From IMG/VR virus record IMGVR_UViG_2684622543_000013: a stretch of DNA of 37,146 bases. One strand, written 5' to 3'. How positions within the stretch are numbered: position 1 is the first letter of the stretch; each line of letters begins with the position of its first letter. The position numbers were made by a program, and so were the translations under genes. Source of the stretch: a virus. Taxonomy: Duplodnaviria > Heunggongvirae > Uroviricota > Caudoviricetes. Positions 1 to 36,881 of the stretch are shown here, one piece after another. The notes beneath the pieces are model-generated. The model had not been told where the DNA came from. It did no database searches and was given only the letters and a program-made list of their open reading frames with translations.

Positions 1-841
1 GTGGATAGCGCACGCGCCCTTATTGCCCGGGGATGGGGAGTAAGCTTAGTCAGCCGTTGTCTCCGGGTGTCGCGTGCGCAGTTGCACGTCATTCTCAGAC
101 GAACCGATGACTGGATGGATGGCCGCCGCAGTCGTCACACTGATGATACGGATGTGCTTCTCCGTATACACCATGTTATCGGAGAGCTGCCCACGTATGG
201 TTATCGTCGGGTATGGGCGCTGCTTCGCAGACAGGCAGAACTTGATGGTATGCCTGCGATCAATGCCAAACGTGTTTACCGGATCATGCGCCAGAATGCG
301 CTGTTGCTTGAGCGAAAACCTGCTGTACCGCCATCGAAACGGGCACATACAGGCAGAGTGGCCGTGAAAGAAAGCAATCAGCGATGGTGCTCTGACGGGT
401 TCGAGTTCTGCTGTGATAACGGAGAGAGACTGCGTGTCACGTTCGCGCTGGACTGCTGTGATCGTGAGGCACTGCACTGGGCGGTGACTACCGGCGGCTT
501 CAACAGTGAAACAGTACAGGACGTCATGCTGGGAGCGGTGGAACGCCGCTTCGGCAACGATCTTCCGTCGTCTCCAGTGGAGTGGCTGACGGATAATGGT
601 TCATGCTACCGGGCTAATGAAACACGCCAGTTCGCCCGGATGTTGGGACTTGAACCGAAGAACACGGCGGTGCGGAGTCCGGAGAGTAACGGAATAGCAG
701 AGAGCTTCGTGAAAACGATAAAGCGTGACTACATCAGTATCATGCCCAAACCAGACGGGTTAACGGCAGCAAAGAACCTTGCAGAGGCGTTCGAGCATTA
801 TAACGAATGGCATCCGCATAGTGCGCTGGGTTATCGCTCGC
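1..841 (+). mobile_element. IS2 (IS3 family) internal segment, cut at the window edge on the left and interrupted on the right by the 36-kb insertion; the remaining 3' tail of IS2 resumes at 36876
   Basis: Sequence and translation recognised as the IS2 orfB (insD) region; the native IS2 reading frame ...HSALGYRS continues as [12 protein letters not shown]... only at 36882 onward. Confidence 0.85.
836..841. repeat. Left copy of the 6-bp target-site duplication GCTCGC (IS2 target sequence)
   Basis: GCTCGC at 836-841 and again at 36876-36881; uninterrupted IS2 has one copy (TATCGCTCGCCACGG). Confidence 0.75.
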
Positions 842-890
842 TGATGCGCCGCGCGATAAATAAGCCCGTATCCGTGAGATAAATGGTACC
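842..890. repeat. Left terminal inverted repeat of the transposable phage, with two copies of a GAGATAAAT-like motif (853-861 and 876-884)
   Basis: Reverse complement of the right end (36827-36875) shares TGAT tip, GAGATAAATG at about 12 bp and GTGAGATAA(A/T)T at about 35 bp from the tip. Confidence 0.7.
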
Positions 891-934
891 GCTGCGGCGT
901 TTCAATATATGCAAAAGAATTACAATCCTACATA

Positions 935-1501
935 TCACTCCGGCCTTTGAACACCAGCCGGAAAGTACCGATAGAGTGTCGATAATCCCACACCGTAAAT
1001 AATGGCCAACTGATGGCGTGTATATCCTTTAACTAATAATCGTCCAATCTGCTCTCTCTCATGGGGCTTTAGTGCATTTGGCCTTCCACCTATACGTCCC
1101 TGTACTCTCGCAGCGGCCAGTCCGGCCAATGTCCGTTCCACTATCAACTCGCGCTCCATTTCTGCCAGTGCTGACATGACATGAAAGAAAAAACGGCCCA
1201 TAGCAGTGCTGGTATCGATACTGTCCGTCAGTGATCGGAAGTGTGCGCCCCGTTCGTGCAAATCAGATATCAGGGTTATGAGGTTTTTGACACTGCGCCC
1301 GAGTCTGTCCAGCTTCCACACAACAAGAGTATCGCCACTATTAATGCACTTTAAAGCACGTTTAAGGCCCGGACGGCTGGCCACTTTTCCGCTCATGCGG
1401 TCTTCAAAAATGCGGTCACAATTTGCGCTTGTGAGTGCATTACGCTGCAAATCACTGTTTTGGTCAATTGTTGATACGCGGATATAGCCGATAACAGCCA
1501 T
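935..1501 (-). CDS. Serine-recombinase DNA invertase (Gin/Pin/Cin/Hin family)
   Basis: Translation MAVIGYIRVSTIDQNSDLQRNAL...LVVWKLDRLGRS...MGRFFFHVMSALAEMERELIVERT...LSTLYRYFPA is the typical invertase pattern (catalytic Ser in IRVST, C-terminal HTH); adjacent to the invertible tail-fibre segment. Confidence 0.9.
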   Translation of the reverse strand: MAVIGYIRVSTIDQNSDLQRNALTSANCDRIFEDRMSGKVASRPGLKRALKCINSGDTLVVWKLDRLGRSVKNLITLISDLHERGAHFRSLTDSIDTSTAMGRFFFHVMSALAEMERELIVERTLAGLAAARVQGRIGGRPNALKPHEREQIGRLLVKGYTRHQLAIIYGVGLSTLYRYFPAGVQRPE

Positions 1502-2166
1502 TGGTTCCTCCTCATTTTTACTGTAATGAGTGGATTATTACGAATTTACACGGCTGTGGCTGCATCCCCGAAAACCTTGGTTTGAGAGAACTTTACCTTG
1601 CACTGACAGGCGGGACGCTGAAGGGGCCGTTAAATATCGAATATGTTGGAGGTCGGGGGTTAACTACAGGAGCAACAGCCGGAACATCAATTTATCATGA
1701 ACTGTATCTGCTTGGAAAACTGGTTGCCTGGTGGGGAGTTATAAACAGTAACGAATTAGTGCTTGAAAACAGAGTCGCTGGTAAAAAATTAATTATTGGC
1801 CCTGATGGTTTCAAAATTGACGGTAAAGACATTGCGACTACTGAGCAACTTTTCGGTGTTGGTCAGACCTACAGAAACCTGACGACCAGCCGTCAAAATA
1901 AAGTCTGGTACACCAACACCGACAGCAAACCCCGGATTGTTCATGTCGAAACGAACAGAACAGGTACTCAGTATCCTTTCAGTATTGATATTCAGGTCAT
2001 TCATAACGGAGTACAACATCGTGCGGATTATCGCTGGACAACTGCTGATGAGGTTATTTGTTTAACTGCTGTTATTCCGCCCGGCGCAAGATATAGCGTC
2101 AACGGAGGATGGGGACAGCCGACAGAATGGACTGTTATTAATTTCTGGCTGGAGTACTCGCTATGA
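1501..2166 (+). CDS. Alternative tail-fibre C-terminal variable domain (silent in this orientation; becomes fused to the constant part of the fibre gene after inversion); the true 5' limit is the crossover site near 1578, not 1501
   Basis: Open frame running across the crossover site with no upstream promoter or start context; followed by an assembly-protein gene; frame arithmetic predicts in-frame fusion after inversion. Confidence 0.6.
   Translation: MVPPHFYCNEWIITNLHGCGCIPENLGLRELYLALTGGTLKGPLNIEYVGGRGLTTGATAGTSIYHELYLLGKLVAWWGVINSNELVLENRVAGKKLIIGPDGFKIDGKDIATTEQLFGVGQTYRNLTTSRQNKVWYTNTDSKPRIVHVETNRTGTQYPFSIDIQVIHNGVQHRADYRWTTADEVICLTAVIPPGARYSVNGGWGQPTEWTVINFWLEYSL
1566..1590. repeat. 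gix/hix-like invertase crossover site (ccccgAAAACCTTGGTTTgagagaa), centre TT at 1577-1578
   Basis: 22 of 25 positions match the inverted partner site at 3790-3814; core AAACC-NN-GGTTT resembles Gin/Hin recombination sites. Confidence 0.7.
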
Positions 2167-2516
2167 AATATTACAAAACGAAAAATAATGAAGTTTATGC
2201 ACTTGAAGATAACGACTCTGCAAAAGAGTGGATAAAAGAAAAAGTGACTGAAATCACCAAAGAGGAAGCTGATAACATCACAAATCCGCGACCAACGAAA
2301 GAACAACTGATCGCAAAAGCGGAATACGATAAACAGGCACTGATTACAGAGGTTCAGGCTGAACCTCAGTTACTGCAAACAAAACTGGCACTTGGCCGTA
2401 TCAGTGATAATGAAAAGGCGCGGTTAAACGCCTGGCTGGATTATCTGGAAGAACTGGAGGCAGTGGACGTATCCACCGCCCCGGATATTATCTGGCCGGT
2501 GAAGCCGGTCGTGTAG
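2163..2516 (+). CDS. Alternative tail-fibre assembly protein (partner of the silent fibre variable domain)
   Basis: Small acidic protein directly downstream of the alternative fibre domain, convergent with the active assembly gene, as in Mu G and P1 C segments. Confidence 0.6.
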   Translation: MKYYKTKNNEVYALEDNDSAKEWIKEKVTEITKEEADNITNPRPTKEQLIAKAEYDKQALITEVQAEPQLLQTKLALGRISDNEKARLNAWLDYLEELEAVDVSTAPDIIWPVKPVV

Positions 2517-35698: not shown

Positions 35699-35910
35699 TG
35701 GCTGAATCTGTTGTATTTTACCTGTTCTGGTATGGTCTCGCGGGATGGTGCACTGCTGAGTTGCACCGCCATTCAGGGTTTTACTCACGTTGCAGCAGCT
35801 ACGGACGCTGGTTCTGTTGGGCCGTTACATTCATGTGCTGGCCTGCTGCTCTTCCTTTATATGTCGATTATATTGGCGACGCAGGAAAAAGGAACGGAGA
35901 TGATGAATAA
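35695..35910 (+). CDS. Small hydrophobic protein
   Basis: 71-aa ORF with two hydrophobic stretches; start overlaps the preceding stop. Confidence 0.4.
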   Translation: MMAESVVFYLFWYGLAGWCTAELHRHSGFYSRCSSYGRWFCWAVTFMCWPAALPLYVDYIGDAGKRNGDDE

Positions 35911-36328
35911 ACAGCGCCTTATTCAACTCATTCACATAGCCCGCAGTGACCTCCGGATGGATGAGGATACCTACCGGCAGATGCTGCAGGGCCTGACCGG
36001 TAAGGCCTCAACCAAAGGAATGGATGCCATACAGCTAAACCGCGTTCTGGAATCCATGAAAAAGAAAGGCTTTCGTATTAAGCCTGCCGGGAAAGGTAAG
36101 TCCGGTTTACCGCTGGATAACCATCCGCAGTCAAAGAAAATCCGGGCGCTGTGGCTTGAGATGTCTGCGGCTGGCATCGTGCGCGACAGTTCAGAGCAGG
36201 CGCTGGCGCTGTGGGTCAAACGGGAAACGGGTATCAGCGCGTTACGCTGGCTCAGCAGTGAGCAGGCTGGCAGCGTGATTGAGAAGCTGAAAAAGTGGCA
36301 GCGCAGAGCTGCGGGGAGGAAGCAATGA
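35900..36328 (+). CDS. GemA-like protein (Mu gp16 family, DUF1018); start taken at ATG 35900
   Basis: Translation MMNKQRLIQLIHIARSDLRMDEDTYRQMLQGLTGKAS...RALWLEMSAAGIVRDSSEQALALWVKRETGISALRWLSSEQAGSVIEKLKKW. Confidence 0.7.
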   Translation: MMNKQRLIQLIHIARSDLRMDEDTYRQMLQGLTGKASTKGMDAIQLNRVLESMKKKGFRIKPAGKGKSGLPLDNHPQSKKIRALWLEMSAAGIVRDSSEQALALWVKRETGISALRWLSSEQAGSVIEKLKKWQRRAAGRKQ

Positions 36329-36714
36329 GCGACCTGAATCAGTTTCGCAGTAAAGGGCCGGAACTGTTGGTGGAGCTGGCACAACATACCTCTGAGACCG
36401 TCCAGGAAATTATTGATATTGAACTGGGAATTGCCGACCAGATTGGTCAGGCCGTCGCAAACCGCATGATGCAGGTCTGGGGCGGGCAAAACGTCTATTT
36501 TCCGATGGGTATGGTATGGCGGGTCAGCCAGCGTGACAGAGAAATATTTAACGAATTCGACGGGCGTAACCATCACGAGCTGGCCCGTAAATTTGGTGTT
36601 TCGCTACAGTGGATTTACAGTGTGGTGAAGCGGGTCAGAAAAGAAGAATTGGATCGGATGCAGGGCAAACTGTTTGATGGTGAATCCGATGCAGACACGG
36701 GGAAAAAGGAGTAG
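36325..36714 (+). CDS. mor: Mor/C-family transcriptional activator; start taken at ATG 36325 with GGGGAGGA ribosome-binding site
   Basis: Translation ...GGQNVYFPMG...RDREIFNEFDGRNHHELARKFGVSLQWIYSVVKRVRKEE matches the Mor/C family (C-terminal HTH). Confidence 0.8.
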   Translation: MSDLNQFRSKGPELLVELAQHTSETVQEIIDIELGIADQIGQAVANRMMQVWGGQNVYFPMGMVWRVSQRDREIFNEFDGRNHHELARKFGVSLQWIYSVVKRVRKEELDRMQGKLFDGESDADTGKKE

Positions 36715-36826
36715 AATCCACAATCAGACTGGTTCGATTTCTGTTTTTTTCGGGCCGGTCTGATTTTCACATACTGTAAGGTTATTGCATATTCCATCCA
36801 GTCTTTTCCCACATTGACCCGGTTCT

Positions 36827-36875
36827 TCCCATAATTATCTCACTTATCCCCTGTCATTTATCTCAAGTCTAATCA
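36827..36875. repeat. Right terminal inverted repeat of the transposable phage (motif copies AATTATCTC 36833-36841 and ATTTATCTC 36856-36864)
   Basis: Reverse complement TGATTAGACTTGAGATAAATGACAGGGGATAAGTGAGATAATTATGG aligns with the left end 842-890. Confidence 0.7.
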
Positions 36876-36881
36876 GCTCGC
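36876..36881. repeat. Right copy of the 6-bp target-site duplication GCTCGC
   Basis: Identical to 836-841; both copies are IS2 sequence. Confidence 0.75.

Follow-up and report, generated by a model that had tools for sequence, protein, structure and literature searches.

The window analysed here, a stretch of 37,146 nucleotides of viral DNA (Caudoviricetes; IMG/VR record IMGVR_UViG_2684622543_000013), almost certainly contains a complete transposable (Mu-like) myovirus prophage of the BcepMu type, inserted by transposition in the 3′ part of orfB of the insertion sequence IS2. The prophage spans positions 842–36875 (36,034 bp), begins with TGATG and ends with AATCA. It is flanked directly at both tips by the hexamer GCTCGC, at 836–841 on the left and 36876–36881 on the right. 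The evidence for this reading includes the exact reconstruction of the interrupted IS2, the family of the transposase TnpA, and a survey of paired junctions in which every duplication is 6 bp long.

The boundaries are defined by alignment to an uninterrupted IS2. The left flank (1–841, plus strand), which encodes the Pfam domains rve, rve_3 and HTH_21 of orfB, is identical at 841/841 nt, with no mismatches, to the intact IS2 of E. coli CP025892. In that intact copy TTATCGCTCGC is followed immediately by CACGGG, and GCTCGC occurs only once. Past the insertion IS2 resumes at 36882 on the plus strand and is identical to the same copy at 76/76 nt up to the IS2 terminus at 36957. An IS2 segment of 380 nt, rebuilt with a single hexamer, aligns in one piece to intact IS2 copies at 100% identity (380/380), and 2,789 records match it at 99% or better. 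Because IS2 identity is restored by removing the element together with one GCTCGC, the insertion is exact and one of the two hexamers is the target-site duplication. A preliminary description of the window had given the same junctions, hexamers, element length and tips, and had predicted that the flanks would abut; the coordinates and sequences are as it described and the flanks do abut.

The IS2 copy that was hit, whose resumed part is 36882–36957, itself interrupts flanking DNA at the 3′ end of a holin S gene of the P21 type (36844–37146, minus strand; Pfam Phage_holin_2_1, E 2e-34). The insertions are thus nested, with the transposable phage in an IS2 that in turn lies in the lysis cassette of a lambdoid prophage. 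The same phage/IS2 junction is present in a contig of assembly GCA_001256215.1 (L146), where the gene past the other end of IS2 encodes an IcmF-like protein (type VI secretion). With holin S and the IcmF-like gene at opposite IS2 ends, the two IS2 flanks may be non-contiguous host DNA, and an IS2-mediated rearrangement at the host locus is possible.

Between its tips the prophage is intact. Of the 49 annotated genes of the relative CP061764, 47 are full-length and free of stops in the window; the remaining two are immunity genes, swapped here for a different CI-type repressor and a Cro/Ner-like open reading frame (ORF). The gene order is colinear with that of the E. coli relatives at 80–88% nucleotide identity, except in the tail-fibre region, the immunity/accessory region (26.6–28.9 kb) and a short early segment. 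The same phage is found at six or more unrelated loci in different public assemblies, with no mismatches over 12,755 bp and 2,160 bp at other loci. Taken together, the intact genes, the flanks identical to active IS2 and the identical copies support recent activity of the phage, as far as this can be judged from sequence, and the phage is presumably functional. The recent insertion and intact gene set proposed in the preliminary description are supported by the same observations.

We considered whether the element is instead a dead, cryptic prophage, with sharp junctions that are old and with transposition and virion formation lost. Many E. coli relatives have decayed in this manner, through a deletion associated with IS1/IS100 (L010), an IS66 insertion (L011) or internal stops (IAI39). 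The invertase of the phage is 5 residues shorter than in the relatives, and the case for activity comes from sequence. However, the conserved genes are all full-length and stop-free, the flanks of the disrupted IS2 have kept 100% identity to active copies, and six or more unrelated loci, from different assemblies, hold copies free of mismatches over 12.7 kb. We consider a dead prophage quite unlikely.

Related prophages are common, being present in 638 of 5,426 complete E. coli genomes (~12%). The IAI39-type relative, recognized by a left end at least 99% identical, is found in 597 of the 5,426 in up to three copies per genome, ST131 included; Bcepmuvirus-type prophages have been noted earlier in E. 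coli ST131 and among induced gut phages. The relatives disrupt hybA, gcd, prpR, adiA and pgaA, while this phage disrupts an IS element. This phage seems to be moving at present in populations of the E. coli/Shigella type. A 40,540-bp record filed as an E. coli ‘plasmid’ (NZ_CP132021.1) encodes a transposase 94% identical to TnpA. Its size of 40.5 kb suggests a phage genome with host flanks that was assembled as a circle, not a true plasmid.

TnpA (30121–31890, plus strand) is a DDE transposase of 589 residues, assigned by Pfam, tblastn, a family alignment, hhalign and AlphaFold/Foldseek, with predicted catalytic residues D160, D254 and E290. By tblastn it is 94% identical to its counterpart in Klebsiella phage KP12, 91% to that of Escherichia phage PhiKM, 68.5% to that of phiE255, 67.6% to that of BcepMu (98% of the query) and 55.6% over its full length to that of B3, with B3 and B3-like phages at 50–56%. 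None of Mu, D108, SfMu and D3112 is among the 69 phage genomes matched. An exhaustive HMMER search recovers a coherent family of proteins of ~590 residues (377 clusters at E ≤1e-30). The triad is invariant in a 76-member family alignment, and 35 residues separate the second D from the E. This DD35E arrangement is like that of retroviral integrases and Tn552, and the three residues align with the D, D and E of Tn552 p480. Comparison of the TnpA family profile with p480 by hhalign gives a probability of 98.3% (E 1.5e-14) over 346 columns that include the N-terminal helix-turn-helix (HTH), the core and the beta-barrel. The same comparison with MuA gives 0.14%, and BLASTP of TnpA against MuA returns a best E of 3.1. 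A search of the Protein Data Bank sequences up to E 10 finds no MuA chain, and TnpA contains none of the Mu-specific Pfam domains, its sole Pfam match being rve. These values agree with the Tn552/BcepMu-type, not MuA-type, module that had been suggested from the window.

The AlphaFold model of TnpA (pLDDT, the predicted local distance difference test score, 89.8) places the protein in a broader context. In Foldseek searches the model matches TnsB of the type V-K CRISPR-associated transposon (7svw, E 2.7e-18), IstA of IS21 (8b4h, E 1.7e-14), Tn7 TnsB (7pik, E 1.7e-12) and the Mu transpososome (4fcy, E 4.5e-10). TnpA falls among the DDE-plus-beta-barrel transposases, a wider group whose members work with an AAA+ partner, and within this group it is Tn552-like, not MuA-like. 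One could argue that the module is MuA-like in all but name, and that a 6-bp stagger is a minor variation inside the MuA family rather than the mark of a separate lineage. The fold-level match to the MuA transpososome fits that view, as do the features the phage shares with Mu: Mor, GemA, a Gin-type invertase with an invertible segment, and the AAA+ partner. Against it, TnpA lacks sequence or profile similarity to MuA as well as Mu-specific Pfam domains, while its profile match to Tn552 p480 is strong, and TnsB and IstA are better structural matches than MuA. The catalytic spacing also differs, being DD55E in MuA (D269/D336/E392). A disguised MuA-type module is therefore very unlikely.

The gene that follows, tnpB (31901–33058, plus strand), encodes an AAA+ transposition ATPase of the AAA_22/ExeA type (Pfam AAA_22, E 4e-20; PHROG 296, DNA transposition protein). 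TnpB and Tn552 p271 are both P-loop ATPases encoded directly downstream of the transposase. No match was found between TnpB and MuB.

Taken alone, the window leaves the length of the duplication ambiguous: a C precedes TG and a G follows CA, and 5-bp and even 4-bp readings rebuild the same IS2. Fourteen insertions with both junctions readable were compared. They comprise the window (IS2), eight E. coli relatives at unrelated sites (an aldolase gene, hybA, pgaA, adiA, glcF, lom, gcd and prpR), two copies of the identical phage located by exact-protein look-up in public assemblies (AGAACG beside cas2-cas1 and GCTGGC in the mal region), and elements in Serratia nevei, Erwinia tracheiphila and a Burkholderiales metagenome-assembled genome (MAG), obtained by an end-pattern scan of species-representative genomes. 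The relative L010, with its early region lost to IS1/IS100, gave no junction pair. In 14/14 pairs the longest flanking direct repeat is exactly 6 bp. In the insertions of the identical phage and the relatives, TG is preceded by G, T or C and CA is followed by A, G or C; since these flanking bases vary, the tips are fixed at TG...CA. In the hybA insertion the reading frame shows this directly, as the ferredoxin motif C-T-G-C-R-Y-C-M-V-A-C-P reappears only when a single GTTACT is kept.

A 5-bp or 4-bp duplication with shifted tips was considered and is ruled out by this survey. A Mu-type insertion with the canonical 5-bp duplication and one offset tip (CTGATG...AATCA with GCTCG, or TGATG...AATCAG with CTCGC) would rebuild the identical IS2 in the window, and GCA_054490995.1 shows the same ambiguity (C before TG, G after CA), but this explanation is barely credible, as neither extra base can be element sequence when both positions vary among insertions and all pairs have a maximal repeat of exactly 6 bp. 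The preliminary description had favored 6 bp and had named 5-bp duplications at other insertions as the finding that would speak against it; these were looked for and none occurs among the 14 pairs. The length it gave stands. Its emphasis on 6 bp as an anomaly beside the 5-bp signature of Mu does not, since Tn552 makes 6-bp direct repeats (PMC3276174), B3 makes a 6-bp duplication, and a 6-bp repeat is the published footprint of the B3/Tn552-family transposase (PMC8705779).

A target-site consensus was sought in the 14 sites, which are too few for a claim and show only weak biases: T is found at duplication position 1 in 0/14, A at the preceding base in 0/14, and G at position 5 in 8/14. The identical-phage copy with AGAACG lies ~340 bp away from the cas2-cas1 genes of a CRISPR locus of type I-E (ERR5981094 contig 143). 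In Erwinia tracheiphila (JBHMFM010000001.1, 2433603–2497395) the ends of a close relative are 63.8 kb apart and are flanked by a perfect 6-bp duplication, AGATGC, suggesting either a composite element or a prophage that grew through subsequent insertions. The Burkholderiales element (MKUP01000010.1, 66015–78567) is only 12,553 bp long, with family-type ends and the duplication CCCTGA. TnpA (37% identity), TnpB and DUF3102 are kept, together with a Mor-like gene and, as the sole tail gene, one for a GpJ-like tail tip; head genes are missing. It looks like an internally deleted transposable prophage.

The two ends of the prophage are organized alike. The left end (842–884, plus strand) consists of a TGA tip and two sub-terminal G.G(A/C)GATAWWT repeats at 851–861 and 874–884, containing the motifs GCGATAAAT at 853–861 and GAGATAAAT at 876–884. 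The right end (36833–36875, minus strand) mirrors it, with GAGATAAAT at 36856–36864 and GAGATAATT at 36833–36841, both read on the minus strand, and a CA tip. Both ends were assigned by motif placement and comparison with BcepMu. The motif G(A/C)GATAWWT thus stands at positions 12–20 and 35–43 from each tip in mirror orientation, where paired motifs had been noted approximately 12 and 35 bp from the tips. The two ends agree at 28 of their first 45 positions. The motif occurs seven times in the window against 5.75 expected, which is not above chance; its significance comes from the mirrored placement and the conservation in BcepMu, not from the count. In a consensus of 110 ends from diverse proteobacteria, the unit extends to G.G(C/A)GATAAAT and is repeated 23 bp apart; because this set was chosen by the motif, only its unconstrained positions are informative. 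We suggest that the sub-terminal repeats are putative TnpA binding sites.

Several points weigh against the reading of a BcepMu-type transposable prophage. Induction, virion production and new transposition are predictions from the DNA. The Pfam rve match of TnpA scores 32.0 bits, just under the gathering cut-off of 32.6. Pairwise BLASTP between TnpA and Tn552 p480 is weak (22% identity, E 1e-4, in the DDE core), and the p480 query was rebuilt from the frameshifted copy on plasmid pMW2, a frameshift that is documented (PMC3276174). The match of TnpB to Tn552 p271 is marginal (BLASTP E 0.003 over 101 residues). Finally, the BcepMu prophage of B. cenocepacia NCTC13227 (NZ_UAQZ01000016.1, 270179–306926), which measures 36,748 bp between its tips, has no flanking direct repeat at its junctions (...agcatg|TGAAG...CTTCA|aattgg...). 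The missing repeat would fit a rearrangement after replicative or intramolecular transposition. An end pair in a Methylovulum MAG (L039/L126) likewise has no flanking repeat. Because of the BcepMu prophage, the 6-bp rule recorded here covers the enterobacterial relatives and one Burkholderiales element, not BcepMu.

By analogy with Mu and Tn552, the insertion can be pictured as follows. TnpA, with its DD35E triad, would bind the two 11-bp sub-terminal repeats at each end, with TnpB likely assisting. It would then join each terminal CA, through its 3′-OH, to target phosphates with a 6-bp stagger, and repair of the two gaps would yield the flanking copies of GCTCGC. Lytic growth would proceed by replicative transposition, with headful packaging that includes host DNA.

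The phage combines full-length TnpA homology, TG...CA tips with sub-terminal motifs and many unrelated sites with a short duplication, the marks of a BcepMu-like phage. Likewise, its genome falls within ~36–39 kb and carries TnpA, TnpB, GemA and Mor, an early operon that runs to the nearer end and myovirus late genes on the opposite strand. The TnpA of BcepMu is 68% identical over 98% of the length, and phiE255 is likewise BcepMu-like. BcepMu has the same TGA tip, G(A/C)GATAWWT at the same distances from the tips, and a genome of similar size (~36–37 kb). In both phages the transposase gene lies ~5 kb from one end and is transcribed toward it, ending 4,725 bp from the tip in BcepMu and 4,985 bp from the right tip here, and the contractile-tail late genes are on the strand opposite the transposase. 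Unlike BcepMu, this phage has an enterobacterial host, other immunity and accessory genes, and a Gin-type invertible tail-fibre segment. Megablast with 24 kb of the element returned no BcepMu or phiE255 record, the similarity being at the protein level only. In the absence of nucleotide similarity to BcepMu, we regard the phage as a family-level relative that falls outside the genus Bcepmuvirus in the strict sense. Published work relates the BcepMu-type transposases to Tn552 and names TG...CA ends as a hallmark of BcepMu relatives (PMC2628397).

The nearest relatives are KP12 (OM835952), PhiKM (PQ738613), Phi06_2974 B and the IAI39-type E. coli prophages. They share 82–88% nucleotide identity in structural genes, 91–94% identity in TnpA, the same tips and the 6-bp duplication; this phage has a tail-fibre/invertible segment, an immunity region and accessory ORFs of its own. 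In the phage collection no record is at least 90% identical over most of the genome, and a literature search on PhiKM returned unrelated phage-therapy papers only. Pseudomonas phage B3, a siphovirus, has the second of the two genome organizations, in which the gene order is Mu-like. Its TnpA is 56% identical over the full length, and its 6-bp duplication is published (PMC8705779). Tn552 of Staphylococcus aureus resembles the phage in the profile homology of p480 to TnpA, the AAA+ partner directly downstream and the 6-bp duplications (PMC3276174). It is, however, not a phage: it is a 6.5-kb resistance transposon with inverted repeats of ~120 bp and a resolvase, and p480 is only ~22% identical to TnpA.

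Mu and this phage both insert at random by transposition and have TG...CA tips and a contractile tail. Both encode GemA, Mor and a DDE transposase, related in fold, alongside its AAA+ partner, and both carry an invertible tail-fibre segment with a Gin-type invertase. They differ in that the Mu transposase and B protein have no sequence similarity to TnpA and TnpB, MuA has 663 residues against the 589 of TnpA, and the early operon of this phage is inverted relative to the late genes. The phage thus encodes no MuA-homologous transposase, the resemblance being at fold level only, and its duplication is 6 bp in 14/14 pairs rather than the 5 bp of Mu.

Phage class, transposase family and 6-bp footprint have each been published before, and the understanding of transposable phages is unchanged. 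The useful products of this analysis are the junction survey, the profile-level link to Tn552 and the evidence for current mobility of this phage. A broader proposal, which we regard as unlikely, is that the enterobacterial BcepMu-type phages form a second lineage of transposable phages in E. coli, abundant (~12% of complete genomes) and currently active, with a Tn552-like transposase that resembles TnsB and IstA more than MuA in its fold and sets a strict 6-bp stagger. A target preference not yet described may exist in such a lineage (no T at duplication position 1, no A just before it). If the proposal were true, the phage with identical copies could be a tractable E. coli system for studying the control of stagger length (5 versus 6 bp) in the MuA/TnsB/Tn552 superfamily. 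For annotation, ‘Mu-like’ prophages of Enterobacteriaceae should be delimited by a 6-bp, not a 5-bp, duplication if the transposase is of the BcepMu/B3/Tn552 type, a rule supported by the base-exact junctions of the 14 pairs.

The remaining genes follow the BcepMu layout, with the repressor and a divergent early operon near 28.2–28.9 kb, early genes that run to the right end, and lysis, head and contractile-tail genes that run leftward. Next to the left end is a serine invertase of the Gin/Hin family with 188 residues (935–1501, minus strand; Pfam Resolvase, E 4e-46, and HTH_7), 90% identical to those of the relatives. Beside it lies an invertible tail-fibre segment of 2.2 kb (1569–3811), like the G segment of Mu, bounded by 22-nt inverted repeats at 1569–1590 and 3790–3811 (CGAAAACCTTGGTTTGAGAGAA and TTCTCCCAAACCAAGGTATTCG), whose core AAACCAAGG we take to be hix/gix-like. 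The segment carries two sets of alternative tail-fibre C-termini together with Caudo_TAP assembly genes. By analogy with Mu, it probably switches host range. Among the relatives, no part of the genome is less conserved than the tail-fibre region.

The late region (3118–25686, minus strand) was assigned from full-length, stop-free matches to CP061764 coding sequences and from Pfam. From left to right it encodes the tail fibre (3118–4413), baseplate (4416–8249), tape measure (9333–11879), tube (12764–13285), sheath (13285–14712), capsid (16232–17185), portal (19771–21270), terminase (21270–23338), an SLT endolysin (24611–25339) and a holin (25336–25686). It is followed by a D12-class (Dam-type) DNA adenine methyltransferase (25934–26701, plus strand; Pfam MethyltransfD12, E 7e-29; PADLOC MTase_II). 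Between the methylase and the repressor are two accessory ORFs of 153 and 297 residues (26754–28044, minus strand), in a stretch that varies among the relatives and has no homologous DNA in them. Pfam and PADLOC gave no assignment for either ORF, and the PHROGs that they match are all of unknown function. They are candidates for lysogenic-conversion or defence cargo.

The CI-type repressor (28167–28583, minus strand; Pfam Phage_CI_repr, E 8e-19) belongs to an immunity region that differs from that of the relatives, whose repressor has no match in the window. On the plus strand, the early operon starts with the small Cro/Ner-like ORF (28667–28897), an HTH regulator (28894–29199) and a DUF3102 protein (29209–30117), identified by Pfam and PHROG, and continues with tnpA and tnpB. 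Past tnpB, the early region (33061–36714, plus strand) encodes DUF3164 (33348–33959) and DUF2786 (~35009–35698) proteins, GemA (35900–36328) and the late activator Mor (36325–36714), identified by Pfam, PHROG and matches to CP061764.

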